Shown in pieces: positions 30,847 to 58,334 of a stretch of 64,000 nt of DNA (position 1 is the stretch's first letter; every line of letters begins with the position of its first letter). The position numbers were made by a program, and so were the translations under genes. Origin of the DNA: Eledone cirrhosa (taxonomy: Eukaryota). The DNA lies in assembly GCA_964016885.1 (NCBI GenBank), contig OZ024744.1:109244001-109308000 (forward strand), written 5' to 3'. A model generated the notes under the pieces. The model did no database searches, had not been told where the DNA came from, and was given only the letters and a program-made list of their open reading frames with translations.

Positions 30847-30945
30847 AAATAAATTCTCTTGTTTATTAATCTCCGAATGACAAAAAATTGAATCCGTTAC
30901 TTAAACTCTGGGTGCCTTTGCTACTGAGACTATGCAATAATAATT

Positions 30946-31124: not shown

Positions 31125-31133
31125 TGTAATAAT

Positions 31134-32899: not shown

Positions 32900-34660
32900 A
32901 GATAACCAAAAGCCTAGAGATCTTCAAGGTGGCAGACAACATCAGACAGCTATTAAGTAAAAGTATGAAGTCCTGGGAAACAGCTAACATCAGATGGAGA
33001 ATCCCCGGGAGGCGTGAAGATCAAGAGAGGTGTCTTCCAAGGAGATAGTTTGTTCCCTTTGTTGTTTGTCCTTACCCTCATACCCTTGTCCTTCATATTG
33101 CGAAAAGTGAGAGCAGGATACAAGCTGGGAAGAGGAGAGCTTACCATCCTCTCATGGACGATCTCAAACACTTTGGGAAAAGTGAGAAGGAGTTGGATGT
33201 GCTTGTTGACACTGTCCGTATATTCAGCAATGATATATGTATGGAATTTGGTGTTGATAAGTGTGGAGTCCTAGTGATGAAGAGGGGCACATTGAACAGA
33301 AGCAACGGAATCCAGGTACCAACAGGTGAGATCATAAAGGAAATTGACACTGAAGAGGGATACAAATATTTGGGTGTTCTGGAGGCAGATGACATCAAGA
33401 ACAAAAAATGAAGGAATTGATAAAATCTGAATTCATAAGGAGAGTAAGGAACATACTAAAATCACATCTAAATAGTAGAAATGCCATAAGCGCAGTAAAT
33501 TCCCGAGCTGTGTATATTATTAGGTACAGTGCGGGAATTCTGAAATGAAATGTTACTAAACAAAAAGAAATGGATAGGAAGACTAGGAAGCTATTGACTA
33601 TCTACAACATGTTCCACAAGAGGAGTGATGTCGATAGACTCTACTTAAGGAGATCTGAAGGTGGAAGAGGTCTTATCAGCATAGAGGACTGTGTTCAGGT
33701 GGAGAAAAACAACCTACACAAATACGTGACTGACAGTAGGGAGCCAATGCTCAAAATTGTACTGAAGGAGAGGACAATAGACCAGGGGATGTCCAAGGAG
33801 GAAATAACAACAAAGGGGCAGAGCAACCTTCATGAAAAATCCCTTCATAGTACCTTTTTTTTGTTAAAAAAACGGAATTCAGAGATCCACAGACATGGAA
33901 CTGGTTAAAAAGAGGAGACCTTAAAAAAGCTACAGAAGGAATGCTAATGGCTGCGCAAGAGCAGGCCCTCAGAACGAAGTGGGTGAAACACCATATTGAC
34001 AAGGAGGAGGCTAGCTCACTGTGTAGGATCTGTGGAGAGAGAGAGGAGACTGTGGCTCACATTGTATCTGAGTGTAAACAGCTAACCCAGACTCACTATA
34101 AAGGCTGGAGACATGATGTGATGGGCAGGGTGATCCACTGGCACCTATGCAAAGTAAATAATTTACCACATTCTGAGAAGTGGTATGAGCATAAGCCAGA
34201 GTCGGTGATAGAAAACGATCAGGTGAAGGTGCTGTGGGATTTTAGGATACAGACGGACAAGAAATTAGAACAGGCTTGACCTGGTGGTTTTTCACAAGGA
34301 AACAAGATTGTGCCTGATTGTAGATGTAGCCTGCCCATTTGACACGAGAGTGCAAGAAAAGGAGAAAATTAACTGATACCAGGATTTAAAATGAGAATTA
34401 AATAGGATTTGGAACTGTCAAGAGATCAAGGTCGTCCCGATTGTCATAGGAACACTAGGTACTATCTCAAAGAGTTTCCAAGGATGGTTAAAGAAAATTA
34501 GTCGAGCCACCTTTTTTGGATCACTTCAAAAGGCATGCTTGCTGGGAACAGCTAGAACCCTGCGATACGTCCTGAATATCTGAGGCTGCAGGTAACGCCT
34601 TGATTTTCGTTTGAACAAACTTTCCAGTTAAATAACATCAATGACTGAGACTTCAAGAAA
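32900..34660 (+). pseudogene. 5'-truncated R4/Dong-type non-LTR retrotransposon relic (RT + CCHC + RLE)
   Basis: GVFQGDSL, MDDLK, MEFGVDKC, YKYLG, DVDRLYL..EGGRGL, AAQEQAL, CRICGEREETVAHIVSEC, RHD, LWDFRIQTD and terminal GTARTLRYVLNI*, spread over several frames with stops. Confidence 0.93.
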
Positions 34661-34700
34661 ATAACAACAACAACAACAAAAACAGCAGCAGCAACAATAA

Positions 34701-35028
34701 TTGTTTCATTTGTTGGCCACAAGGGCCGACATATAGGGGACAATACAATTGATGGGGACAGTGGGGTTTTTACACAAATATCGAGTAAAGAAATAGTAAA
34801 ACAATTGGTTTCTTCTTGACCCAGGACAGCAGCTGTCAAAGAGACGAACTGTGGAAAGATTTCTCTCACAAACGGCAATCACACCTATTCACCACCTAGG
34901 CAGTGTATCTGGAGATGTCGCAGCTTTAGCGCATGTTTGCGCATCATTAGCTACGGCATGCCTAGCCCTCTATGCAGAGGATGCTGGCAGCAATTGGATC
35001 GCCTCACCAACGGAACCTGTCCCCTCCA
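34701..35028 (-). pseudogene. Tx1-clade LINE 3' fragment with internal deletion
   Basis: Minus strand matches ORF2 57090-57300 (CCQHPL..GMP..LMMRKHAL; PFVREIFPQFVSL) joined to a 3' end CCCTTGTGGCCAACAAATGAAAC resembling 58257-58279. AAT repeats on both sides. Confidence 0.82.
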
Positions 35029-35051
35029 AATAATAATAAAAATTAATAATG

Positions 35052-35235
35052 GTTTCTAGTTTAGGCACAAGGCCAGCAATTGCCCAGTACATTACTGGTA
35101 CTTTATTTTATCGACCCCGTAAGGATGAAAGGCAAAGTTAACCTCGACGGGATTTGAACTCAGACTGTAAAGGGACATAACTATGCTAGAAAGCATGGCG
35201 TCCAACCCTCTACCGATACTGCCAATTCCCCGCCC
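35052..35235 (-). mobile_element. tRNA-derived SINE, family A
   Basis: Full head, core and tail, flanked by AAT repeats. Confidence 0.9.
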
Positions 35236-35265
35236 TTATAATAATAATAAAAAATAATAATAATG

Positions 35266-35378
35266 GTTTCTACTTTAGACACAAGGCCAGTAATTTTGGG
35301 GGAGGTGAAGTCGATCAAATCGACCCAGTGCATCACTGGTACTTTATTTTATCGATCCCGTAAGGATGAAAGGCAAAG
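35266..35378 (-). mobile_element. tRNA-derived SINE, family A variant, 3' half
   Basis: Core and tail present, with an extra hairpin GTCGATCAAATCGAC absent from the other copies; head missing. Confidence 0.8.
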
Positions 35379-36892
35379 CTTTCTCCATTGAAGAAAACGG
35401 GTGCCGACGAGGTTCATATGGTTGTAAAGATCAACTCTTGATTAATCGTATGATCCTTTTAGAACTGTCATAATAAACACAGAAATCTCAGTTCTTCATG
35501 GATCAACTTCAAAAAAAGCCTTTGACAGCATACCGCACTCATGGATTCTGAAATCACTGGACATCTTCAAAATCTCACCTGTGATCTCAAACTTCCTGAA
35601 ACACAATATGTCATTATGGAACACACATCTCCAATTATTTCATTCCAATGGAGTACTAAGTTCTAACAATATTAACATCAACTGTGACATTTTCCAGGGT
35701 GACTCACTTTCTCCCTTAATTTTTTTGCGTAGCTTTAATACCCCTTACATCTGAACTTAATAAAACAGGGTACGGTTACAACATTGACAAGAAAATAAGC
35801 GACCTATTTTATATGGAGGGTTTAAAGCTATATTGCAAAGACAATAACGAGCTTGAAGGCCCTTTACGGACAGTAAAAACATTTAGTGGTGACATCAGGA
35901 TGGAGTTTGGACTTGATAAGTGTGACAAGGCCACTTTCAATAAAGGGAGGCTTATCAACTCAACTCAGTTGAATTAGATGCTGAAACAGTCATAAAAGAA
36001 CTTGAACAGGAACAAACCTATAAATACTTAGGCATTAATGAGGGCTGTGGCATACAGCATGCAAGTATGAAAGAGAGGATAAGGAAGGAATGTTACAGGA
36101 TAGTACGTGCAGTTCTGAGATCAGAACTAAATGCTCATAACAAGGTGTTAGCCATAAATTCCTTGGCAGTCCCAGCTGTCACTTATAGCTTCGGTGTGTT
36201 GAACTGGAATATGAGTGAAATTAAAAGAAACAACACTAAAATCCGTAAGTTACTGACCTGTAATAGGATGCACCACCCGAAAGCAGATGTGGATCGTCTT
36301 TACCTTCCTAGACCTCAAGGAGGCCGTGGTCTGATCCAATTGGAATTTACCTACAAGACCACCACTATTGGACTGGCCAAATACTTTGAAACAACAAACG
36401 ACTGTATGCTGAAACTTGTTGAAAAGCATGAGAGAAATAAGAAGCTTCATTCTATCTTGAAGGAGAGCAAAACATATGCTACTGATCTTGTGTTGATACC
36501 CAGGTTGAACAGACTGAGGAAATTGTTGCAATTGTTGCTGCTAAGCACATAAAATTAATGGCAAAAGCAAAAGGGCAAGGACAATTAGCATCAAATTTGG
36601 AGCAGAAACTTCTGCATGGCAAACATGTGGCCCGCAACAAACAAGCTGATGTTGATCAAAAGCACACCCATCAGTAGCTACATAGCTCAGGGCTAAAGGC
36701 AGAGAGTGAAGGCTTCATCTTAACTGCCCAAGATCAAATCTTACTGACTCGGAATTATCAGGCCAATGTGAGGTTGAAACAGTGGACCACCTAGTTTCTG
36801 GATGTAAAGTTTTAGCCCTAACAGAGTACAAATATAGACAGAGTTGGCCAATATCTACACCGGGTAATATGTCGACATTATAAAATCAAAGC

Positions 36893-38449: not shown

Positions 38450-39270
38450 TTATAAAAGTAATGAAAATCGCTGATATTAAATCAACGAACTTAGGCCAAC
38501 GTCTAACTCACTCAATGACTCTGCCAAACCACAGTAATGTAGCTGCAATAAGCTGTTCAGAGGCCACACACTTAGTTAATATCAGATACAGTGGCTGTGT
38601 TTTGGTAGAGAATATCAGCTACAGTAGTATCTGATATACAGTAGAGAATATCAGATACAGTAGTATCTGATATACTGTAGAGAATATCAGATACAGTGGC
38701 TGTGTTTTGGTAGAGAATATCAGATACAGTAGTATCTGATATACTGTAGAGAATATCAGATACAGTGGCTGTGTTTTGGTAGAGAATATCAGATACAGTA
38801 GTATCTGATATACTGTAGAGAATATCAGATACAGTGGCTGTGTTTTGGTAGAGAATATCAGATACAGTAGTATCTGATATACTGTAGAGAATATCAGATA
38901 CAGTGGCTGTGTTTTGGTAGAGAATATCAGATACAGTAGTATCTGATATACTGTAGAGAATATCAGATACAGTAGTATCTGATATACTGTAGAGAATATC
39001 AGATACAGTAGTATCTGATATACAGTAGAGAATATCAGATACAGTAGTATCTGATATACAGTAGAGAATATCAGATACAGTAGTATCTGATATACAGTAG
39101 AGAATACCAGATACAGTAGTATCTGATATACAGTAGAGAATATCAGATACAGTGGTTGTGTTTTGGTAGAGAGAAAGGTAAAAAATCTCTTCATAAAAAT
39201 CTCATAACTTCACAAATGCCGATATTAGATCCTCAATGTTGAGAAAATCACGTAATATCAGCAGATATTT
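38450..39270. repeat. Unclassified dispersed repeat, copy 1 (hosts a minisatellite)
   Basis: TATAAAAGTAATGAAAATCGCTGATATTAAATCAACG...GCTGTTCAGAGGCCACAC...TTTTGGTAGAGAGAAAGGTAAAAA...TCACGTAATATCAGCAG is collinear with 40705-41212. Confidence 0.8.
38578..39172. repeat. Two-unit minisatellite (36-bp palindromic unit A and 33-bp unit B)
   Basis: A = AGAGAATATCAGATACAGTAGTATCTGATATACWGT, B = AGAGAATATCAGATACAGTGGCTGTGTTTTGGT; order B A A B A B A B A B A A A A A A B. Confidence 0.97.
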
Positions 39271-40059: not shown

Positions 40060-40153
40060 CGAGATGGCGTGTGTATATATATGTGTGTGTGTCTATGACC
40101 AGTGTATATAGATCGCAGACACCCACATATATGTATACACACACACATGCATA

Positions 40154-40184
<31 letters not shown>

Positions 40185-40704
40185 GTAAAGTTATATTTAA
40201 AATTGTTGGGTTACAACTAGTAAATATTTATAACTGATATAAAAGCACTCGACAAATATTTGGAGTATATTTACAATATTAAATAAATGGAAAACTATAT
40301 TTATAAAACCATATTTATTTCATTATATATATTTCGGGGATATCATATTAACAATATGCTATGCCTTCATCAGACAAAATACAATATAAACAGTTTTATA
40401 GATAAATATATTCGACATACCGTAATAAACATCAACTAATATTGTATATATATATATATATATATACACACACATTTACACACACATATACACACACATT
40501 TATATATATACATACACACACGTATATAAACACACATGTATATATATACATACACACACGTATATATATATGGGCCTTCCAGTTTCATTTCACATTATAT
40601 ATATGTCTGTGTATATTTCAATTATTTAAAAATTATCTTTAAGTGAACAAGTTTTAAAAAATATTTTGAAGTGAACGTGACCCAACGGGTCACAGGTGGG
40701 CTAG
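39711..40704 (+). mobile_element. Probable non-autonomous Helitron
   Basis: 3' end: perfect hairpin GTGACCC-AAC-GGGTCAC (40677-40693), then 7 nt, then CTAG followed by T. Candidate 5' end A|TCCATATACTACTAAAAC at 39711 gives the canonical A|T target without a TSD. The 5' boundary is less certain than the 3'. Confidence 0.6.
40302..40400 (-). ncRNA. Type I hammerhead ribozyme (degenerate stem II)
   Basis: Minus strand: UAUUUUGU-CUGAUGA-[A GG C AUA G CAUAUU guu AAUAUG A UAU C CC C]-GAAA-UAUAU-AUA^AUGAAAUA. Stem I is 8 bp (two G.U), extended by AUAUU/AAUAU and UAUAAAAC/GUUUUAUA. Confidence 0.75.
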
Positions 40705-40935
40705 TATAATATAAAAGTAACGAAGATCGCTGGTATTAAATCAACGTTCTCCAGCCAACGTCTAGCTCACTCAATGAATCTCCGAATTTCAGTAATGCAG
40801 CTGCAATCAGCTGTTCAGAGGCCACACATTTAGTTAATAGCAGATATGGTGGCTGTGTTTTGGTAGAGAGAAAGGTAAAAATCTCAACTCCTAGACGATA
40901 TTGTTTCTGTGTAATATAACTTCACTAATAGATAG

Positions 40936-40967
40936 ATTTCTTTATTAGCCACAAGGGCGCACAAGAC
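40936..40967 (-). mobile_element. About 32-nt Tx1-like 3'-terminal stub with 9-bp TSD
   Basis: Minus strand CCCTTGTGGCTAATAAAGAAATC matches the Tx1 3' end at 58257-58279; flanked by AATAGATAG at 40927-40935 and 40968-40976. Confidence 0.7.
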
Positions 40968-41011
40968 AATAGATAGTACATCCGCAATGTTCTGAAAGTC
41001 ACGTAAATATC

Positions 41012-41190
41012 GTTTCTACTTTAGGCACAAGGCTAGCAATTACACAGTGCATTACTGGTACTTTATTTTATCGATCCCGTAAGGATGAAAGGCAAAGTTA
41101 ACCTCGACGGGATTTGAACTCAGACCGTAAAGGGGGGGGGTAATTATGCTAGAAAGCATGGCGTCCGACCCTCTACCAATACTGCCAATT
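41012..41190 (-). mobile_element. tRNA-derived SINE, family A
   Basis: Full head, core and tail; flanked by GTAA(A)TATC; the empty site is visible at 39252-39260. Confidence 0.9.
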
Positions 41191-41225
41191 CACTGTAATA
41201 TCAGCAGGTATTAAGAGCAATAACT

Positions 41226-41386
41226 GTTTCTACTTTAGGCACAAGGCCAGCAATTACCCAGTGCATTACTGGTACTTTATTTTATCGACCCCGTAAGGAT
41301 GAAAGGCAAAGTTAACCTCGGCGGGATTTGAACTCAGATCGTAAAGGGACGTAACTATGCTGGAAATCATGGCGTCCGACCCTCTA
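41226..41386 (-). mobile_element. tRNA-derived SINE, family A
   Basis: B-box, core and tail intact; extreme 5' end missing. Confidence 0.88.
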
Positions 41387-41545
41387 TCCGAACCTTGTCT
41401 TCAGAACATAAACACATTTTAAATCATGTCACTTAGGTAGGATTAGATCAAGCGTGAAAAACATACCAATAATTTTACCAAAATGAAATCATTGTGGGTA
41501 TCAGCCAGAAAGGACCCAATATATTTTCTGTTACCAAACACAGCT

Positions 41546-41736
41546 GCGGTTGGATTGGCAGTATCGGTAGAGGATCAGACGCCATGCTTTGCAGCAAAGA
41601 GTTACGGCCCTTTATGGTCTGAAATCAAATCCCGCCGATGTTAACTTTGCCTTTCATCCTTACGGGGGTCGATAAAATAAAGTACCGGTAATACACTGGG
41701 GGATAATTGCTGGCCTTGTGCCAAAAAGTAGAAACA
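41546..41736 (+). mobile_element. tRNA-derived SINE, family A
   Basis: TTGGCAGTATCGGTAGAG head, core GCCTTTCATCCTTACGGGG.TCGATAAAATAAAGTACC, tail GGCCTTGTGCC..GTAGAAAC. Confidence 0.9.
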
Positions 41737-42078
41737 ATTATTACAAAAGGTTTTACAAGACGGGTATTTAACAAAAAAAAACCTTTAAGATGAAAGGGAG
41801 ATAACTCACATCTAGCTTGTGTGTATTAATACACAGAAGATCTCCAATTATATGTGAAATATTTACTATATTAAGAAAAATAATTATTTAAATATCATTA
41901 GGCTATTATTAAAGATTAGAATCTTTAATAATTTCTGTAAGTTTACCATGTCTGTAAGTGGGAGGAGAGAATCCAGCCTAAGTGACCAATGAAAAAGGTT
42001 TTATTTGTGAGAGGAGGAATTACCGCTGATGAAAACCCACTTAATTTATGTATTGTGGATAGGGGAGGGGGAAGGTGA

Positions 42079-42115
<37 letters not shown>

Positions 42116-42433
42116 TAGATGGGAAGGAAGAGAGAAGGAACTCAGGCGAAAGCGACCAGATATGATAAGATATTGTTGAATGTTAGGGTGGCTGGAGACA
42201 GGGTGTTGTAAGGGGTTGGAGTTACAAGGAGAGTGGATAGAGAGATTATAAGATCAGATGTTATGCTAGTCGGGGTGGTATTACAGGTACACACACACGC
42301 ACACACACACACATGCACACACACACACACACGCACGCACGCACACACATAAACACACACACACACACACACGCACGCACTCACACACATTTGTATGACA
42401 TACATACATACATACATACATACATACATACAT

Positions 42434-43026
42434 GGTGGCTGCCAACTCGTTTTCGAGTACGGCCACTACTTTATATCCATGTAGGAGAACCCCTACCGAT
42501 GCGCTGAACGAGTGTGACTTTTTAGTCCAGCCAGCGACTTGAAAACTCTAGTACAAACACTACACTTGTGACAATTATTGACACATAGTGCTTTGCAGTT
42601 GGTACCATGTGACGACAAGTGCAGAGAGATCTCGAGATATAAAGCAATGCCTGTGCCGTGAAGCTTTTATAGTGAGCAAAGGCACTGCACAAAGCCAGTC
42701 CCACTGTCTTAACCAAGATGATATTTACCAAAAAGAAGAACAAGTCAACATCATTGGATACCATCAGGGTTGCAGGTGTTATATCAGAGTTTTCCTTCTC
42801 CTAGAATTCTGCCTTGACAAAGGCTAAGGGGTCATCTCTCCCAGTGATTTTGGATGGCCATTGACTCTTAAGAGCTCCTTTGCCCTTTGACAGGTTTTGT
42901 TTTTAGTCCTGCAGGATGTCCAAAGTCACCCTCCTCATCAAGAAACCTTGGTGGGGTTGCCAGTTTAGTCGCCAACGACCCGACCATGAGACAGGTTGTA
43001 CTGGGATACATGTTACCAGTAGCACC
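42434..43026 (-). mobile_element. About 590-bp non-autonomous RTE derivative (5' UTR joined to 3' end)
   Basis: Minus strand carries CTAGGAGAAGGAAAACTCTGA (a motif I recall from RTE 5' UTRs), a terminal finger CSVCTRVFKSLAGLKSHTRSAH* similar to the RTE end at 51950-52015, and a 3' hairpin GTGGC..CTCG-AAAA-CGAG..GCCAC. (ATAC)n on both sides. Confidence 0.7.
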
Positions 43027-43487
43027 ATACATACATACATACATACATACATACATACATACATACATACATACATACATACATACAAGCGAGGGGGAGA
43101 AAAGTATAGAATGTGCGTCTGTATATGTGCCTATGGGTGTATGTATGTGTATGTGCATGTATATGTGTGTACGTGTGTGTATTTGTGTGTATCTAATTAG
43201 ACAACAGTTACATAACTTGCTCAACAAGTTTCCCTTATAATCCTATTTTCTTGAACACACAAGAAAGAAATACAAACAAAACTGCCGCCATTAACCAGAA
43301 CTTATTTCCTCCGTTTGTATCTTGTTTCTACACCAATTTTAACCCACCCGAGCAATGTACCTCAAATCACGTCTAAAACGCAGTTACCTGAGGAGCCAAC
43401 TATGGCCATATGGCGTAGTTGCTCTAGATGAGACAAATATTAACCACCCCTGCATCCCTGTCTTCAAGACATATTGTATAATGTATG

Positions 43488-43785
43488 ATGCCACATGGCT
43501 CAGTGGTTCAGGTGTTCGGCTCACAAACGTAAGGTCATGATTTCCATTCCCGGCGATGTTTTATTCTTTGATTAAGAGACATTTTACGTTGCTCCAGTCC
43601 ACTAAACTGGCAAAAAGGTATTGTACCTGTAATTTGAAGGCCCAGATTTGTCACATTCTGTGACACACTTAATCTTCCAGAGAACTACGTTGAGAGTACA
43701 CGTGCCTGTGGAGTGTTCACTCACTTGCACCTTAAGTTCTGTTGATTGTATAACTGGAAGACTGATCGCCGAAACTGACGGGGGT
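43488..43785 (+). mobile_element. Old tRNA-derived SINE, family B (CORE-like)
   Basis: A-box TGGCTCAGTGG, degenerate B-box, CORE-like ACGTTGCTCCAGTCCACT..CTGGCAAAAA; an inverted homologue follows. Confidence 0.7.
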
Positions 43786-43819
43786 CTAAAATTGGATAAT
43801 ATAGTCATAGATACAATGA

Positions 43820-44045
43820 GTGTTTCTGTCGTTCGATCAACGTAATAACTTGCTTGAGTATTCCACATCCACGTGTACCCTTAATGTAAGGATATTCAGT
43901 GTTTCATAGTATGTCATAACGATGTTCCTTCGAATTACAGATACAATTAATGTTTGTCAGCTGAGTGGACTGGATCGAAAATAATGTCTCTGGGCCAGGG
44001 ATACTTCGCGCCATTGAGAATCGAACTCACGACTTTAGGTTAGGG
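43820..44045 (-). mobile_element. Old tRNA-derived SINE, family B, tail-to-tail with the previous copy
   Basis: Minus strand B-box GAGTTCGATTC, TCCAGTCCACTCAGCTG and GTACACGTG..TGTGGA blocks shared with 43488-43785. Confidence 0.65.
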
Positions 44046-44076
44046 TGGCTCCTTTGAATTGCAACTACAGTTTACC

Positions 44077-44192
44077 CGACGGGCTTCCAAACAGTTTCTG
44101 TCTACATAAGTTCACTTACAAGATATCTTTTAGTTGGATTGAATCAGGTACCTAATGATATGGGAATCAAACTTCTTTACCATTTGGTCATG
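44077..44192 (-). mobile_element. Degenerate SINE fragment, family C
   Basis: Minus strand GGTAAAGAAGTTTGATTCCCA...GTAGACAGAAACTGTTTGGAAGCCCGTC, recalled as an abundant octopus SINE; heavily decayed. Confidence 0.5.
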
Positions 44193-44326
44193 TGACATCA
44201 ACTGTTAATTAGTGGTACAGTGACATCAAACACAAACTAATATTTCTGAATTAATGGTATATCGTCGAACCAACACCACCACCACCACCACCACCAACAC
44301 CACCACCACCACAATCACCAACACCA

Positions 44327-47300
44327 TCGACCCTATCGAATGCTTTCGATTGATCTAAATTGATCAGTTCCCCACCGAAGCCAGGTTTACACCCTACCCT
44401 CGCTATGGTGTATCGCATGAGGTGGAGGTTGTCGTCTATGGACCTGGCTGGGATTGCACAAGTTTGCGCCTCCCCAACCAAATCCTCGACGACAAGCGCC
44501 AATCTCTTTGCTAACACCTTGGCCAAAATCTTAAACTCTGTGTTGAGCTGAGTTATGGGCCTGAAGTTGTCTAATGTATCCCTCTTGTTCTCGTCTTTCC
44601 TTATCAGCGTCACCACTCCCCTGCTCACAGAACTGGGAATACTCCCATTCTGCTGCCAGTTGCAGTAAAGTGCTTCGAGGAGTTCGGAGAACAAATCTGG
44701 CATATTTACGTAAAGCTCGTAGGGCAGGCCATCCAAACCGGGTGACTTGCGCCTTATGCAGCCGACAAGGCCGTCCTGAATTTCGGCTAAAGTAATCGGC
44801 CTTTCGCAGCGCTCAGCGTCGACCGTCGAGATGCGCGGCAAGCCGTCAAGGTAGGGACTGAAATCCGCTACTCTCTCTCTCTGACTTGTCACTCTCCCCG
44901 AACAACCGAGCAAAGTGCTCGCGAAAGGCCTCACACATCCGCTTGGAATCGCTTATCTCGTGTCCGTCTCGGTCCGCCAAAGACCTAATTGTGGTTTTAT
45001 TACCACGCTGCGCCTCCATAACGTGGGCTCATCTAACAACTTTGGTTCCCTCGTTTCTCAGCGCACGCGCCTTAGCTCTGACAATTCAACCTTCGTGTTT
45101 CGCGTTGAAGAAATGGTCTAATGCCATTCTCGCCGTTAGCACGTCAGTTGCAATGCCACTACAAATAGCCTCGTCTAACTTATCTACCAGCTGCCCCTCC
45201 TTTCTATTTTTCTCTAACGCTAGTTCTTTGCTGAACTCTATCGAAGTTACTCTAATCTCTCTTTTGAGAGCCCCCCACCATCTGTTGTTGCTGATCCCCC
45301 CTGTCAAATTTTGCTTAACTAAATTGTTGACTCGGTCCCTGTAAGCCTTACGTGCCGGAAATGACATGTTCAGCTTCCAGTAACCCGGTCCCAACCTACG
45401 CGTTTTATCTAGGTCGACCGTACAGATCACAAATTTGTGATCTGAATAGGCGACCGTTTTAAAAAGTGGGCAGCCTACACTATTTCTATCTATTTTCCTA
45501 ATGAAGATCCTGTCTATATACGATCTAGATGACCCCATTCGGTTGGTCCATGTCCATACTGGCACATTGGGGAAATCTAGTCGATACCTGTCAGACAGTT
45601 GGAACTGGCTGAGTAGGTGCTTGAGGCTTTTGCACCCCCCGCTCCTATCGGCTACTCCCACACAATCCCAGCGTGCGTCTAAGATGCCATTCCAGCCCCC
45701 CGCTAACCGTAAAGGGCGAGACGTACCCAGAAAGGTCTCCAGGCGCCTAAAGATGTCCGGTCGTCCGGCCCCTGTAGGGGCGTAGACGGCCAGCAGTCTA
45801 AAGGCACCACCTTCGCTACTGCTCACATCCAAGACCACCAACTTACCGTCCGGGTCCCGGAAGATCGACCTTACCTCGAGATCCAGTCCTTTCCTAAACA
45901 GCACTGCCACCCCACCCCCCATCATTCCCGGTCTGCTAACAGATGCGAAGATCTGATAGTCGTTGAAAATGGGGGCTAGTGCGCGCGTGTCGGAAATTCT
46001 GGTCTCGCTGACGGCAGTCACATCCATTTCCAGCGACCTGAGGTCGTTGAGCAGGCGACCCTGCTTCCAGGGTGACCCAGGCCGCGAACATTTAAACTTC
46101 CTACTCTTAATATGGCTATATTGGTAAGCTAAGAGAGAGAGGGAAGGTTTACTTACCTCCCGGGGTCTTGTGAAGGTCGGGTGGTTCGACCTCCATGGTT
46201 GGTGGGGGTTTCTTTTGGGAACCCCTTTAAAAGTCTTGATGTGGGTTTCACATTCGGGGTTCCCACGTCTTGAGGAAAGCTCTCTCGAATTTCTTTGTAG
46301 GAATTGAGTCACATTCGGACCAGAAGCAAATCTTCTGGCACGCAAAATTAACTCATTTCAAAAATCTCCCCCTCTGTTTGAATGTCCTCGCTTCGTGCTA
46401 AGAGTGCCGTTAGTTTATCGTTGGCCCTTCTGACAAGCACGAAGTTTTTAACATTTTGTTGGTGTGGTTTTATTTGTTTTCGTTTTGGTGACTGTGGTGG
46501 TGATGGTTTTGGTGGTGTTGTTTCGGGTATGTCTGTGTTTGTTGTAGGTGTGGTGTCTGAAATTTCAAGTATCTGTGTGTTTATTTGTACTTGTGTTTGT
46601 TTAGGTTGTTTGCGTTTCGGGGATTGTGGAGGTGGTGTCGATGTTGCTGTTAGTGATGATGTTATTGGGGAAGTGTTTGCGTTAGTGGTGTTTGTATTTT
46701 TTGTTGTGTATGTTTTTCTGTTTTGTTAGGGCTTTTTTTTTGTGAGTTTTCTCTGGTTTTTTTTTGCACTTTTGGGTTTTCCTTCATCTTCGCTGCTGGA
46801 AGACAAAGGTTCTGTGGGTGTGAATGTCTCTGTGTCTGTGTGTGCGTTTATTGTTTTGTCTATGTGTATAATTGGGAGGGGGAGGGGGAGTGGGAGAGCT
46901 TTCCTCGTTTTCCCCTTGGATTGGTTTTGGTGTTGGTGGTGATCCGGCTATTTTTGATGTTGGTGTCCGTGTTTTTGTTGGTGTTGTTTTTGGTGGTGGT
47001 GGTGCAGCTTTCTGTGCTGACACTGGCGTTGGCAACAAAGGAGGTTTGCGACCCCCTGCATTTTTGCGCTGAGGGTAGAAGGCTTGCAGATGCGTTGCTT
47101 CCCCGCAGACGAAGCAGCGTGGCCTTCTTCCGTCAATGATTAGTTGGATTGTTGTCCCGTCCTGCAGACGGGCAAAATCCGGGATGTTGTTCATGTCATC
47201 CGGTTTCATTTGGAGAAGAATCTCCAAATCCATTCCGGACCAGTCCTCTCTCTCTGTCCTTTTGATATCCAGGAGGGTAGTGTCTGTCCCCTCCTCGATT

Positions 47301-48332
47301 ACGCATCCCAGCAGCCACCATATGTTCATTCCTGGTGGGATGCTGGGAATGCGGACCTTTACTGTCCTTTTAGCCATGTAGGACGGGTGCATGATAATGC
47401 GTTCCGTTCTGCAGGGGGTCACCGAGTGCTTAATAGCGAGGGCCTCGGTTTTGAACAGTACCGAGATGGTACCGAACTGCTTGGCTTTTGCTTTGTACTC
47501 TATGTTACTTTCGTAGACTCCAAAGCAGCCTCGACCCCTGCTTGGCTGGCAAGTTCCACTTTTCGTGTCTGCACCGAAATGCATCGAAAGAACACCGTCC
47601 TCCTTTGCATGGCCGCTATTGCCTCGTCCGGGATGGTCATGTTTGCCCAGGATTTCTCCCGTTTAATTAGCCTCCACGCTTTGGCCAACTGTTCGTCTTT
47701 ATCGCTAATATCAATATCAATATTCAATAAGCGCTTTGTTTTTGCTGTTGCTGCAGCAAATGTGGTGCTTCTGATGCTCTTATTGTTGGTGTTGTTCTTG
47801 CTGTTGTTATTGGTGTTGTTGTTGTTGTTTTGTTTGTTGATGCTGTTGCCACCGCCATCTGTGTTTACATTGAAGCTGTCGGTGTTATTGTCGTTATTGC
47901 TCCGAGTTGCTGTTGTGGTGGTGGTGGCGGTGGTGGTGATGTCGTTTTCAGATGATACTGCTGCTATGGCAGAAGGTTGTGATGGTAGCTTTTGAGTTTT
48001 GCCTTCACATTCAGTAGAGTGGATGACAGGCATGACTGTAGCCGTCGTAGTCGTGGTGAAATCTGCAGTGGCTGCTTTAAACTTTTGACCTGAACGTTGT
48101 TTACCGTTTCAAGGTCGAAAATTTCCATAATTTTTTTTTAAAGATTTTTTTCGAAGTTTTAAAAAATAAATCTGAATATTCGGGATTAAAACCCGAATAT
48201 TGAGAGGTATCCCACTCTTTAAATCAAGATGTGTACCTTAAGTTTCGTTAACGACAAGAAAATACAAAAAATGACACTTTAAAACAGCTTAAAGTTACGA
48301 ACCTTTTCCCCCGCAGATTTGTACTGTCTTCA

Positions 48333-48338
<6 letters not shown>
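44327..48338 (-). mobile_element. Tx1-clade LINE, 5' end present, 3' end lost, frameshifted
   Basis: ORF1 pieces (47500-48033; 46784-47584 with IDGRRPRCFVCGEATHLQAF), APE endonuclease (45086-~46110: SETR, VYAP, IDRIF, SDH) and RT N-half (PGLDG, FRPITQLN, DQSKAFDRVD) ending at a (GGT)n tract. 5' flank is (TTA)n. Confidence 0.95.
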
Positions 48339-48420
<82 letters not shown>

Positions 48421-48421
48421 C

Positions 48422-48449
<28 letters not shown>

Positions 48450-48460
<11 letters not shown>

Positions 48461-49023
48461 TGTATATATAGTGTATTTTGCAATACACTGTATGCTTAAT
48501 TAAAAGCATTTTGAAGACCATACGCTATTGTTTTAAAGTAGCGACAACGACGCTTACTTAAATTTTCAGCAAACAAGGTCTTCAAAATGCATTTAATTAA
48601 GCATACAGTGTATTGCAAAATACACTATATATACAATCATATATATATCGCTATTTCAGAGCACCAATTCCAATTTTCAATTTCTACTGGACCGACAACC
48701 GCTCTGTATAATCAGTTCCTGATTATTACTGGAATTCTATAAGAATCCAACACACATAATTTTCAGCAAACAGGGAGAGTGAGCTTTGATAAGTACCAAC
48801 AAGTACGAAACAGAGAGAGTGAGCTTTGCTAAGTACCAACAAGTACGAAACAGAGCTCTGTCAGCTTATCTCCCCTTGTTTGCTGAAAATTTAAGTGAGC
48901 GACATTGTCGCTACTTTAAAACAATAGCGTATGGTCTTCAAAATGCTTTTAATTAAGCATACAGTGTATTGCAAAATACACTATATATACACTCATATAT
49001 ATATCGCTATTTCAGAGCACCAA

Positions 49024-49027
<4 letters not shown>
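48450..49027 (+). mobile_element. Hammerhead-containing non-coding element: about 356-nt partial tandem with 5' inverted segment (retrozyme/Penelope-like)
   Basis: 48577-48670 is repeated at 48933-49027 (offset 356). 48450-48578 is the reverse complement of about 48874-49002. Hammerhead in the middle; (TA)n on both sides. Confidence 0.75.
48758..48891 (+). ncRNA. Type I hammerhead ribozyme, U3-A8 core variant, with 40-nt internal duplication
   Basis: GUGAGCU-UUGAUAA-GUAC caacaa GUAC-GAAA-(40-nt duplication carrying UUGCUAA)-CAGAGCUCUG-UC^AGCUUAU. Stem I continues GGGAG/CUCCC and AAUUUUCAGCAAACA/UGUUUGCUGAAAAUU. Confidence 0.82.
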
Positions 49028-49053
<26 letters not shown>

Positions 49054-49066
<13 letters not shown>

Positions 49067-49982
49067 TCAATTTCCAATTGTAGGAATCCTATAATGAAAC
49101 GAGACGTCCGTCTGGGAATAGATATATTCGATATGTCTCATATGAAATAATACAGCCAATTTTCCACGCAATACTTTTAGTTAGCACCCCGAACGCATAA
49201 TTGGGAATATAATCACTTATTTCCTAATGTTTGTTGAGTGAGTTGGAATTTGGCCGGAGTATCGCTAAAAAGCTTTCTCCGATATTGTATTTATTTATTT
49301 ACTCTTGGCGCAGCAGATTTGAAATTCCCGGTATAAGGTTAGCATTTCTTTGTTTATTTTTTATATATGAATATTGATTGTTCCTTATATCTCATTCTGT
49401 TATTTTGCCCAAGAAAATATCTGTGTGTCATCAAATGTTGTACACACATAGATATTTTTTCAATTTCCAATTGAGTTCTTAGCACGTGGCCTGAATTCCT
49501 TTCAGAGTTCATTGTCATGCGCATGTATTGTTTTTTTGGCGGTAATTTACTTCCTCATTTTTGAATCAGTTTAAGCATTTCTTTAGAACTGCTGGACTGG
49601 CAACCTGACAGATACCTCAGGCACAGATGATGATTATCGCTAAATACTGATGTTGGTTAGATTATCAATATTAGTATTATTGGGGCACCCACTGATGAAT
49701 TATAGGAGCCCACTTGAATATATATCTATTGATGGTATACAAGCTCCTACATAAATTGGTATAATTTCACCCAAATTGTAGGAATCCTATAATGAAACGA
49801 GACGTCCGTCTGGGAATAGATATATTCGATATGTCTCATATGAAATAATACGGCCAATTTTTCCACGCAATACTTTTAGTTAGCACCCCGAACGCATAAT
49901 TGGGAATATACTCACTTATTTCCTAATGTTTGTTGAGTTAGAATTTGGCCGGAGTATCGCTAAAAAGCTTTCTCCGATATTG

Positions 49983-49988
<6 letters not shown>
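49054..49988 (+). mobile_element. Hammerhead-containing non-coding element: about 700-nt partial tandem (retrozyme/Penelope pLTR-like)
   Basis: About 215-bp direct repeat 49076-49290 / 49775-49988 (offset 698). TTTTCAATTTCCAATTG occurs at about 49064 and 49457. Flanked by (TA)n; no ORF. Confidence 0.72.
49688..49814 (+). ncRNA. Type I hammerhead ribozyme with canonical core and enlarged stem II
   Basis: CCCA-CUGAUGA-AUUAUAGGA[77 nt]UCCUAUAAU-GAAA-CG AGACGUC CG-UC^UGGG. All core nucleotides canonical, GUC triplet, predicted cut after 49810. Confidence 0.88.
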
Positions 49989-52015
<2,027 letters not shown>

Positions 52016-52237: not shown

Positions 52238-52474
52238 TTATTATTATTATTATTATTATTGAATGCCATGGTTGACGGAGGCTCGGCTCTGTAAGGTATA
52301 GTAATTTTTAACCGTTAAAACAATTGTAAATTGTTTAAAACTTGAACCAAATTGTTGATAAAGACACCCTCCTCCTCGTGAGAGGGGTCTTTCTGTCCGT
52401 TATTTGGCCCTTCGGGGTTAAATAACCAGTTATTGGGGTTTTGTACCCAATATTCATTTTAAACAAAAAACAAC

Positions 52475-54574
52475 ATGGCTACGAAAAAGAAATTTCATAC
52501 GTCACTCCCACTCATTCCGTCTTCTTCTTCCTCAATCATCACTACAGCAGAGAGAAGATTGTCTCTCTCCCTCCCTTCTTTAAATGTGTCTCTCTCCCTC
52601 CCTTCTCTTTCGCAAGTGACGAAAGAAAAGAAAAGTCTCGTGCAAAGCGTGCAAGGTTTCTCCACGACGACGACGACAGCGACGAAACAGGTGTGCGGGA
52701 AATACGAAAACCCAGTTCATTCGTCTGACGTCAGGAATAATAGCAGTAGCAGCCGTAATAACAACAGCAACAGTGACAATGAAAACAACAGTAGCAGCCG
52801 CAACAGCATCACCAGCAGCATAAACAACAACAGCATTAGCAGCAGCAACACCAACAACAACCACAGCAACAGCGGCGGAGGCAGTAGTCGTAGTACCTGC
52901 AGCAACAACAAAAGTACCAGCAGCTCTGACGACAACAACAACAATAGCAGCAAAGAAAAACCAATCTCATTTGCAGGCATTGCGAAAAACTTGGAAACAA
53001 TCCTCATAACAAATGAGGAATTAGAGGAAGCGAAGAAGACGGTGACAAAGAATGGATACCGAGCAATCTGCAAGACAGCGGAAAAGTTTTTCGAAACCCA
53101 ACAGCACTGTACGGTCACGTACCGTACAGTAAGTACAAAATCCCGTAGGGTGGAAAGAGCCACAGAGGCTCAGATACAAAAAGCCTTGGGGTCTGTGTGG
53201 CAGCGGAAAACGCACATCACCCGAGGCAAAAAATATGCCACCGTAGAGGTACTTTTTGCCACACCCCAGGAGGCAAAGGCCCAATCAGTAGTGACCCTAA
53301 GGAGCGAGGAAATGGTGTTGGTGCCCTCCTACTGCGGGCAAAAAATTGTAAGGGTCAAACTGACCCACGTCCCCCCCGGAATGGCCCCTTCTTGGCTGGC
53401 CGCGTCTGACCTCGTCGGAATCGAGGACAAAACAACTGTACTGCAAGTACAGAAAAAAGTAAGAGAAGATTGGGTCGGCACCTCCATTGAGATGCTAATC
53501 CAAACCAACCAGGAGTGCATCGAAGCTATCCCGGATGTGATAGACTTCGATAACGGCACTCAACTGCCCATAAGTGTTGAGGGCAAACGCCCGAAATGCT
53601 TTCGCTGTGGATCGAAGACTCACCTCAGGGCCTTCTGCAACGAGAAGACCCTGAGAAAGGAGAAAACCCCCCTCCTTCCGAATCCGGCTCCACGGCTACC
53701 AGCAACAGGACAAGCGGCAACCAGGAACGATAGGTCCGTGGCACCCATACCCACTCCACGGAAATCAAAAACAGCAGCAGCAGTGGAAATATTAACAACA
53801 ACAACAGCAATACCAAATGCAGCTGCAACAGAGACTCCAGTGCAAACATCACCAACAACAAGTGAAAGAGTGGAGCTGGTACACCTCCCCGACCTCACAG
53901 AATCAGACATGGAGTGTGAGGTGGGAGAGGGATGGCAAAAGGTCGTAAGAAGACACAAACGCAGAAGCAGCGCATCGTCGCCTTTGAAAAGGGAGGAAAG
54001 AAATGAGAAAAGGGTAAAGTCTACTGCAAAGAGACCCACAGCAGCAACACCACCAACACCATCACCACCCACACTAGCACCACCATCACCACCGGCGACA
54101 ACCCCACCGCCAACAACACCTTCAACACCACCACCACAAGCACCAACATCGCAAACACAACAACAAAACACACACACCCAGCAACAACGACAAGAAAATA
54201 GCAGAACCACACCCCACCCCCAGAAAAACAAATGCACGGCAATAAATACACACAATAAGAAACTAATGACTTACATAATTGAACACACAGACATTTCACA
54301 ACAGGACTACATAATACCAGCACCAATCAAAACGCCAACTAACATAAGACTGCTAAAAATAGCACAGAAACAATACACAAACATTAAAACGAAATTCCCC
54401 AACGCAGTTGGTGATTTCAGGGACCTAGGAGGAACCATCAATCGAAGAGTATATTCAGACATTCTCTTAGAAGAGCCGACGACCAGCCGAAGGGACGATT
54501 CAACGGTCCCTTCACCAGACGATCAAGTGAAAAGGGATGTAAAAACCATCCCTCCTCTACCAAAAGTACGGTAA
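52475..54574 (+). CDS. Tx1 ORF1 nucleic-acid-binding protein (699 aa)
   Basis: Uninterrupted ORF; CCHC knuckle CFRCGSKTHLRAFC preceded by VEGKRP; Ser/Asn- and Pro/Thr-rich linkers; homologous to the minus-strand copies. Confidence 0.88.
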   Translation: MATKKKFHTSLPLIPSSSSSIITTAERRLSLSLPSLNVSLSLPSLSQVTKEKKSLVQSVQGFSTTTTTATKQVCGKYENPVHSSDVRNNSSSSRNNNSNSDNENNSSSRNSITSSINNNSISSSNTNNNHSNSGGGSSRSTCSNNKSTSSSDDNNNNSSKEKPISFAGIAKNLETILITNEELEEAKKTVTKNGYRAICKTAEKFFETQQHCTVTYRTVSTKSRRVERATEAQIQKALGSVWQRKTHITRGKKYATVEVLFATPQEAKAQSVVTLRSEEMVLVPSYCGQKIVRVKLTHVPPGMAPSWLAASDLVGIEDKTTVLQVQKKVREDWVGTSIEMLIQTNQECIEAIPDVIDFDNGTQLPISVEGKRPKCFRCGSKTHLRAFCNEKTLRKEKTPLLPNPAPRLPATGQAATRNDRSVAPIPTPRKSKTAAAVEILTTTTAIPNAAATETPVQTSPTTSERVELVHLPDLTESDMECEVGEGWQKVVRRHKRRSSASSPLKREERNEKRVKSTAKRPTAATPPTPSPPTLAPPSPPATTPPPTTPSTPPPQAPTSQTQQQNTHTQQQRQENSRTTPHPQKNKCTAINTHNKKLMTYIIEHTDISQQDYIIPAPIKTPTNIRLLKIAQKQYTNIKTKFPNAVGDFRDLGGTINRRVYSDILLEEPTTSRRDDSTVPSPDDQVKRDVKTIPPLPKVR

Positions 54575-54609
54575 GTGGTCTTTCCCATCTTTTCCACTCT
54601 ATTTTAAAC

Positions 54610-57600
54610 ATGACCTCACTCAGAATAGGCAGCATAAATGCGCGTGGCTTGGGGTCGTCACGGAAGCAGGGTCACCTGCTCAACGACCTCAGGTCACTAA
54701 ACATAGATGTAGTGCCCATCAGTGAGACCAGAATCTCCGAAGCACGGGCCTTCGCACCGATCTTCGGCGGCTACGATGTGTACGCATCTCCCAGCCGTCC
54801 TGGATCCGGTGGAGGAGTTGCTGTGCTTTTTCGGAGAGGTTTGGATCTCGCCATACGGGCCATCTTCCTGGACCCAGAGGGTAAGCTGGTGGTGCTGGAC
54901 GTGACCAGCGGAGACGGGCAAGCTTTCAGGCTAGTGGCCGTCTATGCCCCGACAGGAGCAGGGCGGCCTGATTTCTTCCGGCGTCTGGAGACCTTTCTTG
55001 GAACGTCCCGCTCTTTAGTGTTAGTGGGCGACTGGAACGGGATCTTAGATGCACGCTGGGACTGTGTGGGATTAGCGGATAGGGGTGGAGGGTGCAAGAG
55101 CCTCACCAACCTGCTCAGGCGTTTTGAACTGTCTGACAGGTACCGATTGGATTTCCCGAATGTGCCAATGTGGACTTAGACAAACCGCATAGGGTCATCC
55201 AGATCATATCTAGATAGAGTATTTTGTAGGGAAATAGATAGGTCTAGCATAGGCTGTCCACAATTCAAGATAGTCAGCTACACGGACCACAAATTCGTGA
55301 TCTGTGTGCTTGACTTAGATAGGCTTCATAGACGAGGACCCGGCTACTGGAAGCTAAACGCGTCCTTACCAGCGCGCAAGGCCTACAGAGACCGGATTAG
55401 CGAACTAGTTAAGCGGGCGTTGACGGGGGCCATCGTCAACAACAAGTGGTGGTTTGCTCTGAAAAGAGCGATTAGAATAGAATCGATTAGGTTTAGTAAG
55501 GCTTTAGCAATAGAGAAAAATAGAGCAGAGGGAGAACTAGTTAGAAAATTAGACGAGGCGCTTAGCAAAGGCATTGCGACCGACGTGCTTGCGGCGAAAT
55601 TGGCCCTTGACCAATTCTTCAATGCAAAGCACGAAGGCTGCGTTGTCAGAGCAAGGGTGCGTGCTCTCAGACACGAGGGGACGAAAGCCGTTCAATGGGC
55701 CCGAGTGGCGGAGGCGCGTCGTGGCAACAAAGCCACGATCCGGTCTTTGGTGGACCACGACGGGCGCATGCTACTCGATCCCGGGCAAATATGTGAAGCT
55801 TTTCAGCGACACTTCGCTCAGCTGTTCGGGGGCAGCGGTGGGCCGGGTAGAGGGATGGACTTTAGTGTCTACCTCGACGGACTGCCGCGGCTCTCGGCCA
55901 CTGAGGCGAAGTGTTGCGAAAAGCCGATAACAGCCGCTGAAGTAAGGGAGGCAATGACTGGCTGCACAAGGGGTAAATCGCCTGGTTTGGATGGTCTGCC
56001 CTATGAACTTTACGTACAGATGCCAGACTTGTTCGGAGGCCTCTTGGTGGACGTCTACTGCAACTGGCAACAGAACGGGAGAATTCCCAGTTCTGTGAGC
56101 CGAGGAGCGGTGGCACTGCTGAGAAAGGATCCGAACAAGGGGGATAACATAGATAATTTCCGGCCCATAACTCTGCTAAACACAGAGTTCAAGATGTTGG
56201 CCAAGGTGCTAGCAAAGAGGTTGGCGCTTGTCGTTGGTGGTCTGGTGGGAGAGGCGCAGACATGCGCCATTCCCGACAGATCCATCCACGACAACCTCCA
56301 CCTCATGCGATACATCATAGAGAGGGTAGCTAAGGAACCTGGCACGGGTGGGTCCTTGATCAATTTAGATCAGTCGAAAGCTTTCGATAGGGTCGACCAT
56401 CGTTACCTAGCGGCAGTCCTGAGGGCGGCTGGCTTTGGGCCCGTCTTCAGAGGCTGGATCGCTGCCATGCACAGCGACATCTGGTCTGTGGTGAGAGTGA
56501 ACGGTCACCTGTCGGAACCGTTCAACATCATGCGCTCGGTCCGCCAAGGATGTCCCCTCTCGTCCCTCTTGTACGTATTGACTCTCGAGCCATTACTGCA
56601 CAAACTGGAGACGTTGAGGGGAGTCCCGCGCGAACTAGGATGCGGAAGATCCGTGCCAGCATATGCGGACGATGTCACCGTAGTGGTGTCGAACGCCAAA
56701 CACATCGAGGCGATCGGCACTACACTAAGAGAATACGAAGCGGTGACAGGAGCAATGATCAACCAGGAAAAGTCAGTGGGCCTGCAGCTCGGCACCTGGA
56801 GAGGCAGGTCCATGCCGTCCAACAGCGTCGTCGGGCGCTGGAGAGCGGACCGGTTAAATTGCTAGGGGTCTGGTTCGATCCGGACCTCCAGACGGACAAA
56901 AACTGGGACGAGGTGACGAGCAGGGTGGCTTCTCTCACCCAGAAATGGGCGGAGAGGAAGCTATCCCTGAAAGGTCGAGCGGAGGTGGCTAACGCGTACA
57001 TCGCGTCTGTCATCTGCTACCGCCTGACCGTCGTACCTTGTCCTAAGCCTCGCCTGACTGCGCTGGAGCGTTTGCTCTTTCGCTTTTTGTGGAAGGGACG
57101 TGCTCCGATGGTCAGGCAGTCCATCTGTTGTCAACACCCGCTACGTGGAGGGATGGGCATGCCGTGGCTGATGATGCGCAGGCACGCGCTCAGGCTACGA
57201 CATCTCCACCTCTCCCTCGACGGTGATCAGGTGTGGTCGCCGTTTGCTAGACGCGTATTTCCCCAGCTCGTTTCCTTGACGGAGCTGCAGTCCTGGGTCA
57301 AGCGAAGACCGAGAGGGAGCGCCTGGAGACTGGAATGTCTTCAGGCGCTCACAGCCCTCGACCAATCGGGCAATGTGATCGGTGGAAACTCCACCTCGGC
57401 GTTCTATAGAGGATTAGTGGAGGGGAAGAGCGACGACGTACTTGGGGAAACTCTAGGCGTCGACGAAAATCAACTAGCCAATCTCTTCGGAAGAACTTTC
57501 GGGCCGGGGCCTATGGACAACTTCCAGAAATCTCTGGGCCTGGCAGTGCTACCGAGGAGCCTTGCCAGTTCGGGATAAACTCTACAGGCATGGAGGTGCC

Positions 57601-58292: not shown

Positions 58293-58334
<42 letters not shown>

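Follow-up and report, generated by a model that had tools for sequence, protein, structure and literature searches.

Which enzyme copies the short, non-coding repeats of animal genomes that carry a hammerhead ribozyme, and do their hammerheads cut in the living cell? Both questions are raised by a stretch of 64,000 nt from the 3.0-Gb assembly GCA_964016885.1 of Eledone cirrhosa (contig OZ024744.1, positions 109,244,001 to 109,308,000, forward strand; hereafter the window), in which an earlier note had marked three type I hammerheads within 10 kb, here called E1, E2 and E3. All three motifs were confirmed at the positions and on the strands that the note had given (Table 1), each of them is multi-copy and (TA)n-flanked, and the window holds three separate retroelement insertions in TA microsatellites, from unrelated families. 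The reading that we consider probable is that E1 is the terminus of an autonomous Penelope-like element (PLE), while E2 and E3 are retrozymes copied in trans by a Penelope-type reverse transcriptase (RT) and endonuclease, from RNA that is predicted to be cut by its ribozyme. Because the kinds of element are known, the window alone is ordinary; what matters is that the genome around it holds footprints for both questions, namely a PLE tail and inversion on E2 and 5′ ends of E3 copies at the predicted cut site.

The type I core, C/U-UGA-N-G/A-A ... GAAA ... UH with three stems and an open stem I, is present in E1, E2 and E3, in canonical form in E1 and E3 and with a U3-A8 core in the E2 family. 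A structural scan of positions 30449-64000 returned three cores, two from E2 and one from E3, where 100 dinucleotide shuffles gave a mean of 0.12 and a maximum of 2. E1 was missed by both strict scanners because of an A.C or an extra A at the base of its stem II; inspection by hand and its genome copies confirmed it. The three are unrelated, as the note had said: their similarity is not significant (best E = 0.011), and a common origin was rejected. Single-copy status, which the note had named as a finding that would speak against it, is contradicted by 8,739 exact genome matches to a 27-nt motif of E1, 143 to a 28-nt motif of E2, and 563 to a 28-nt hammerhead motif of E3, with 965 to a 24-nt motif of its 3′ end; a DNA search that had made E1 look single-copy, with 3 matches, was an artefact exposed by this pattern search. 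Only the first or best places of each genome search were examined, and sequence kin were sought in 299 loci (cited below by their L numbers), among them Hydra and Neptune termini and 600 kb of DNA sampled at even spacing.

The bounding by (TA)n is real as well. A (TA)4 follows 25 of 27 3′ ends of E1, 20 of 23 of E3 (78 of 88 in a larger E3 set) and 28 of 36 of E2, the short-end counts of E2 being inflated because the element has a TA run of its own; the background is 12% for windows of the same loci and 6.6% for 20-nt windows taken from evenly spaced DNA.

To judge by its sequence, E1 comes from a young autonomous PLE of the Hydra clade and forms the terminal repeat of that element. Its hammerhead has the core CUGAUGA at 40373-40367, GAAA at 40335-40332, UAUAUA in stem III and an 8-bp stem I, and the window copy is 100% identical to the termini at L101 and L102 (query nt 7-258) and L105 (16-258), the last of which carries a 576-aa RT-endonuclease frame. 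Many of the 100 listed matches to the E1 motif are inverted or direct pairs no more than about 4 kb apart, and in all twelve pairs examined open frames or fragments of frames lie between the repeats; at L098 the order is pseudo-long terminal repeat (pLTR), open reading frame (ORF), pLTR, at a spacing of 3.77 kb. All 76 scored genome matches to the protein of this parent are 95-100% identical, many with open frames of about 745 aa. The single 745-aa frame holds an RT with YRDD at 360 and then a C-terminal nuclease motif, Y..YVG, at 625, together with RWR at 45, DKT at 126, CNCRDRSKC at 604, CDLC at 702 and CKH at 729. A Pfam search of the protein matched no family, so the GIY-YIG call rests on motifs and on resemblance to the published alignment; identity to the nearest proteins in the databases is 30-42%, and the best named of these, from Argonauta hians, has 39%.

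Craig et al. (2021, PMC8557442; here and below, papers are cited for the passages compared) define the Hydra clade by RW(R/K), DKT, a CxCx5C linker, and CxxC and CxH flanking E and N, with a length generally, as a tendency, below 3 kb, and describe its members as having canonical hammerheads and inserting in (TA)n, Hydra-1_Obim from Octopus bimaculoides among them. The parent of E1 shares the single RT/GIY-YIG-type ORF with RW(R/K), DKT, CxCx5C, CxxC and CxH, the hammerhead in a terminal repeat and the (TA)n insertion. It differs from the clade in its length (3.77 kb, above the stated 3 kb because of a 3′ untranslated region of about 1.3 kb), in its tail of about 89 nt against 30-40, and in being young with thousands of copies; compared by eye against the supplement, its hammerhead and protein differ from those of Hydra-1_Obim. 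E1 is a new family of a published clade, of which an octopus member with a hammerhead and a (TA)n target had been reported. Since E1 is the pLTR of a PLE, the outcome that the earlier note had itself set against the novelty of its elements, that they are fragments of Penelope pLTRs, is what was found for this one.

The copies of E1 stop at two sites about 89 nt apart, and in all 11 inverted insertions with both ends intact one end is tailed and the other untailed (counted by eye, for E1 as for E2 below, leaving out insertions with a broken end). Such a tail has been described as a feature of PLEs alone and shown to be the stretch that separates two start sites of the RT (PMC11167929). Position 7 of the E1 core is free in 91 copies (CUGAGGA 39, CUGAAGA 25, CUGAUGA 22, CUGACGA 1, other 4), and outside that position the core is nearly fixed.

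E2 is a non-coding tandem non-LTR retrozyme that bears the same PLE signature, a tail and an inverted 5′-truncated copy. The unit of the family is 318 nt long, with 34% GC and a longest ORF of 32 aa. In two counts, of 28 and of 25 insertions, 19 and 17 include an inverted part and 21 and 19 a direct tandem; the 3′ ends fall at two sites about 30 nt apart, and of the insertions with an inversion and two intact ends all 12 carry the tail at one end and lack it at the other. The window copy is built like its family, with an inverted part, a direct tandem and a tail at one end only. Its hammerhead has features that the note had not described, a variant core and a 40-bp duplication (48768-48855) that yields a second core, so that UUGAUAA at 48786-48792 is followed by UUGCUAA at 48826-48832; stem III reads CAGAGCUCUG. 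The core UUGAUAA is found in 58 of 63 parsed copies of the family, and the A6C change of the second core in 0 of these 63, and to judge by these letters the window copy of the hammerhead looks damaged. Among 27 sequences of E2 and a sister family, 14 of 31 pairs change two-sidedly, including a change from U3-A8 to C3-G8, a count not equalled in any of 500 shuffles. Between adjacent direct units, rare variants are shared at 0.0023 per site, against 0.0006 between insertions. The 5′ ends of E2 cluster at +5..+20 from the cut site, but this cluster was not used as evidence because it coincides with an internal inverted repeat of the element.

A larger array points the same way. At L271 (3850-9330) 5 + 12 units of a 310-nt retrozyme related to E2 form an inverted array that has TA on both sides and, like E2, a tail on just one end; its 15 complete units do not differ from one another, as they would not if the RT had passed once round a circle or along a uniform array. 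Mobilisation of E2 by a PLE is, in our judgement, very likely.

E3 is also a non-coding tandem non-LTR retrozyme, without the PLE tail or the inversion signature. Its unit has 701 nt, 34% GC and a longest ORF of 56 aa, and its insertions have one fixed 3′ end and variable 5′ truncation, with more than one segment in 17 of 88 and tandems that reach four units in a row (L169). The hammerhead has CUGAUGA at 49692-49698, a 4-bp stem I and the stem III CGAGACGUCCG; the palindrome GACGUC that the note had read there does lie inside stem III, which as a whole is imperfect. A sister family, E3b, of 765 nt and 70-76% identical to E3, has replaced the A-U pair at 10.1-11.1 (59 of 59 in E3) with G-C (20 of 20), while its stem III is still palindromic, as CGAUCG (16) or CGGCCG (4), and one stem I pair has changed; these pairs were read by motif parsing, the MAFFT alignment being out of register after stem III. 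Adjacent units of E3 share rare variants at 0.0032 per site against 0.00011 between insertions (about 29-fold; 12 of 26 pairs), those of E3b at 0.0057 against 0.00004, and the upstream and downstream E3 units of the window have a rare variant in common. Such sharing would fit the copying of a single unit.

The second footprint is the position at which E3 copies begin. Among 88 insertions chosen by the 3′ motif and mapped against six natural units, 11 have their 5′ end at -3..+14 from the predicted cut, where the flanking density leads one to expect 1.7 (Poisson P about 2e-6, uncorrected); other 18-nt windows hold at most 5 each, and two longer TA-like sites gather 0 and 2. Some upstream units of tandems were left unchained in this count and scored by the downstream unit (e.g. 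L315, whose end lies at -1 by eye). As a pattern of genomic ends, the pile-up is suggestive of RNA templates cleaved in vivo. A look-up of RNA runs listed none for E3, a result that is neutral as to its expression.

In the mechanism that we propose, a tandem transcript would be cut at successive hammerheads, acting as dimers through the palindromic stem III, into RNA of unit length that would probably be circularised. A PLE protein, with its GIY-YIG nuclease, would nick (TA)n, and reverse transcription would start at a fixed internal site, or at two such sites in E1 and E2, giving the tail; the RT would then run round the unit and so leave copies that are 5′-truncated and yet longer than one unit. 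Possible helpers are at hand in two young, TA-inserting PLE families with intact frames, the Hydra type that includes E1 and a Neptune type. The latter (L166:239-1200; L220-L239) has 150 scored matches at 97-100%, a tail of about 60 nt, TA flanks, a GIY-YIG domain and a hammerhead-like motif of its own. Since both are young and have open frames, mobilisation in trans is directly testable. Another autonomous Hydra-type family (L245, L285), with an RT about 46-48% identical, carries in its terminal repeat a U3-A8 hammerhead core like that of E2, without a sequence match to E2, and there are additional PLE families beside the Hydra and Neptune types.

Several observations weigh against this reading, and the first concerns the enzyme. 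No autonomous element sharing sequence with E2 or E3 was found in the 299 loci, so that the linked RT/GIY-YIG frames for which the note had suggested a search accompany E1 (the frames of about 745 aa) and neither of the others; the sole extra match in a search with the 3′ ends of E2 and E3 was another retrozyme family, that of L271. For E3, an adjoining inverted part was seen in none of the insertions in two counts of 27 each, and the tail is also absent; only 2 of 88 were flagged as inverted, and these are two opposite-strand copies about 1.5 kb apart. In this E3 is unlike E1, E2 and the Neptune-type family, and although it resembles the partial tandem of a PLE, it is not classed as PLE-mobilised by the tail and inversion. 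It might instead be mobilised by a microsatellite-targeting long interspersed nuclear element (LINE) that is not a PLE, of R4/Dong or Tx1 type for example, with E2 alone left to a PLE. LINE clades of the R4/Dong or Tx1 type can target microsatellites, and other LINEs are present in the window; Dong-R4 and L1-Tx1 elements are listed as recently active in Octopus vulgaris (PMC13282606). Yet the 3′ module of E3 matches no LINE end in the window or in the 299 loci, and a partial tandem, a fixed internal start and a type I hammerhead are together the PLE pattern. We regard a LINE as a rather unlikely carrier and lean towards mobilisation by a PLE for E3 also.

The second set of objections concerns the ribozyme. 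The hammerhead fold lies 5.4-10.6 kcal/mol above the predicted minimum-energy monomer fold in all three window motifs, and the active fold was not the predicted minimum in any copy tested. Two-sided changes among relatives of E1 (3 of 6 stem II pairs, 3 of 17 pairs overall) are not above shuffles, 71 of 500 of which reach the count, and covariation counts in general are not counts of independent events, because the copies are related. Eight of nine Xenopus retrozyme dimers were uncleaved in vitro (bioRxiv 10.64898/2026.07.22.740005), the hammerhead of the Poseidon element PAc was dispensable for insertion in vitro (PMC11167929), and PLE hammerheads are reported to show weak cleavage or to need protein for it. 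A shared rare variant is present in only 4 of 29 E2 unit pairs, and the variants shared between adjacent units of E3 and E3b fit local duplication or conversion too. The pile-up of E3 5′ ends has difficulties of its own: in the narrowest window, -3..+3, there are 3 ends against 0.66 (P = 0.03, with three sizes tried); 6 of the ends fall in an ATATAT microhomology at +9..+15 if the 3 nt before it are counted; stalling of the RT at RNA structure could produce a similar accumulation; the idea came from a partly overlapping sample of E3; and a first mapping, with the window unit as reference, gave 0 ends at -3..+3 and 5 at -5..+10 (P = 0.11), a result distorted by private variants of that reference unit. 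The fold energies, the damaged E2 copy of the window and the weak or protein-dependent cleavage of published PLE hammerheads would suit an account in which the hammerheads are relics of structure or folds that bind protein, the elements spread through read-through RNA that is not cleaved, and tandems grow by local duplication. That account is unlikely, in our view, given that the core is conserved with position 7 left free, that U3-A8 is exchanged for C3-G8, that the palindromes are maintained, that E3 5′ ends concentrate at the predicted cut site, and that upstream units show variable 5′ truncation against a fixed 3′ end.

Could E2 and E3 be, like E1, the termini of autonomous PLEs whose coding bodies were not sampled? 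E1 too had seemed a short TA-flanked element until its genome copies were examined, some 20 hammerhead families exist, and the searches were followed only at their first or best places. In the loci examined, however, full E2 and E3 units are preceded on their 5′ side by target DNA, by an inverted copy or by the 3′ end of a further unit; E3 runs to four units in a row, and ORFs of either family never exceed 56 aa. One such candidate, E3 as the pLTR of a Neptune-type element beside it (L166, L161, L148), was rejected: the PLE coding fragments that abut E3 finish in a pLTR and hammerhead of their own before E3 begins. Autonomous termini are therefore a very improbable explanation. That DNA rich in AT and low in complexity produced the motifs by chance can be dismissed almost entirely, even though an Rfam scan reported none of the three at E <= 1 (only TA-driven microRNA noise) and the folds of E1 (z -0.51) and E3 (z -1.51) are no better than those of shuffles, since shuffles yield far fewer cores than the window and than the 600 kb described below, and hundreds to thousands of exact copies with compensatory changes refute it.

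How do E2 and E3 compare with what has been published? Non-LTR retrozymes are described as PLE-linked non-autonomous elements (PMC7229834; bioRxiv 10.64898/2026.07.22.740005). Like those of Cervera & de la Pena (2020) and Li, Clavereau & Pollet (2026), E2 and E3 are non-coding, have 34% GC, stand head to tail with one type I hammerhead per unit, and occur as monomers and short tandems dispersed beside autonomous PLEs. They differ in the stem II domain of about 95 nt in E3 and E3b, in the U3-A8 core of E2 and in their (TA)n targets; moreover, the PLE tail and paired inversion of E2 were not found described for retrozymes in the passages of these two papers, and the sequence kinship with a pLTR of an autonomous PLE that Li et al. 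associate with retrozymes was not found for E2 or E3 in the 299 loci. A U3-A8 variant of the core is known from the Cercyon elements of Schistosoma (Cervera & de la Pena 2014, PMC4209133). With the minimal PLE hammerheads of that paper our motifs share the U3-A8 variant, one additional nucleotide behind A9 and a palindromic 15.2-16.2 region predicted to work in dimers; E2 goes beyond the minimal form in the 4-bp monomeric stem III past its 15.1-16.1 pair and in the length of its extended stem I. The two alternative 3′ ends of E1 and E2 also match the two internal RT start sites that define a tail in Poseidon PAc of Anolis (Frangieh et al. 2024, PMC11167929), an element that likewise has AT-rich targets; for PAc no RNA ends were seen at the cut site, whereas genomic 5′ ends of E3 pile up at or just after the cut.

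E2 and E3 are new families within the non-LTR retrozymes, a class already proposed to consist of non-autonomous derivatives of PLEs. Of the several non-autonomous, TA-targeting families that the note had supposed, these two stand and E1 does not, being the terminus of an autonomous Hydra-clade PLE. To its doubt whether the elements had been catalogued the answer is divided: the kinds are published (Hydra PLEs in PMC8557442, retrozymes in PMC7229834), and the families E1, E2 and E3 themselves are absent from the published passages compared, although Repbase or Dfam entries may exist. A literature search found no cephalopod retrozyme study or cephalopod hammerhead census, though supplementary species tables could mention cephalopods, and the words "ribozyme" and "hammerhead" are absent from the main text of the 2026 repeat annotation of Octopus vulgaris (PMC13282606).

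That three motifs should fall within 10 kb is unremarkable, because TA tracts gather such insertions and the genome is densely populated with hammerhead repeats. Sixty evenly spaced stretches of 10 kb (600 kb; 40 of the sixty from three contigs, a sample that favours large chromosomes) contained 72 hammerhead motifs, against 0-2 in ten shuffles. These belong to about 20 families, 48 of the 72 have an exact palindrome at 15.2-16.2, and two arrays contribute 26; at least two families occur in 9 of the 60 stretches and at least three in 3. Extrapolation gives about 360,000 motifs in the genome (bootstrap 185,000-580,000), or 195,000 (130,000-265,000) when a family scores only once in any stretch, with a descriptor that misses forms like the E1 of the window. 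For comparison, up to 120,000 motifs are reported for axolotl, whose genome is listed at 28 Gb, and about 5,000 for mussel (PMC7229834); the estimate here is 130,000-580,000 in 3.0 Gb, and Rfam missed all three motifs of the window. A bolder statement, which we offer only tentatively and hold to be possible, would be that this is among the densest hammerhead loads known from an animal (about one per 8-15 kb, more than 100,000 motifs, at least 20 families), that E2 displays the rolling copying of circular RNAs by a PLE, and that the 5′ ends of E3 mark cleavage in vivo; E3 might, in addition, enter (TA)n by a second route of integration, free of inversions. Further motifs were met in passing: an array of 556-bp units at L276, with a hammerhead in most and 0-14 differences between units, and hammerhead-like motifs with stem II domains of 60-120 nt at L036, L040, L061, L142 and L155.

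Table 1. Positions, in window coordinates, of the three hammerhead-bearing insertions and their TA tracts.
Feature	Position	Strand	Details	Basis
(TA)17 at the tailed end of E1	40151-40184		second TA tract about 40445-40465	
E1, 5′-truncated 3′ end of an autonomous Hydra-clade PLE	40185-40444	-		genome copies
E1 pLTR	about 40436-40274	-	tail of ~89 nt, 40273-40185	
E1 type I hammerhead	40302-40400	-	predicted cut between 40324 and 40323	
E1 inverted stub of the short end, 8 nt	40437-40444	+		inferred from sequence
TA tract left of E2	48364-48457		preceded by (TAA)n, 48338-48366	
E2 inverted 5′-truncated copy	48458-48578	-	reaches the 3′ end without a tail (the short end)	BLAST map of the unit
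E2 direct part: partial upstream unit, then full unit	48579-49029	+	tail 49005-49029	BLAST map
E2 type I hammerhead, U3-A8 core	48758-48891	+	predicted cut after 48862	
TA tract between E2 and E3	49030-49058			
E3 upstream partial unit (unit nt 491-701)	49059-49283	+	only the 3′ half of the hammerhead; preceded within this interval by a ~22-nt piece from further upstream in the E3 unit	
E3 full 701-nt unit, non-coding	49284-49982	+	runs to the single fixed 3′ end of the family	
E3 type I hammerhead, ~95-nt stem II domain	49688-49814	+	predicted cut after 49810	
Long degenerate (TA)n at the E3 3′ end	49983-50621			

As the note had observed, E2 and E3 are adjacent, separated by a TA tract of about 29 nt. 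The remainder of the window is repetitive. A 75-bp satellite, or possibly a coding repeat, fills positions 1-30448 with 409 copies at 93% matches, and its 25-codon repeat stays open for 420-670 codons on both strands between indels; it was considered as a further hammerhead, for its minus strand contains CUGAUGA, and was rejected because the consensus unit lacks GAAA. Beyond 30448 the window is AT-rich, with microsatellites and LINE fragments. Two related LINEs, at 44251-48108 (minus) and 52463-57578 (plus), which we take from their features to be Tx1/L1-like, have an ORF1, an endonuclease/exonuclease/phosphatase domain and an RT, and are frameshifted; the domain was matched by Pfam in the LINE at 44251-48108, which adjoins, on the left, the (TAA)n(TA)n tract that holds E2. 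A 1020-aa RT frame at 58743-61805 (minus), presumably R4/Dong-like, stops near (ATT)n at 58280-58334 and has fragments near 33049-36552 and 62768-63163, and an RT fragment at 50626-51795, RTE-like on our assumption, begins directly after the long TA tract 3′ of E3. A short interspersed repeat in partial tandem occupies 30938-31312 and 41012-41348 and is common in the sampled loci, often behind (TAA)n, and a 36/69-bp tandem repeat lies at 38605-39153.

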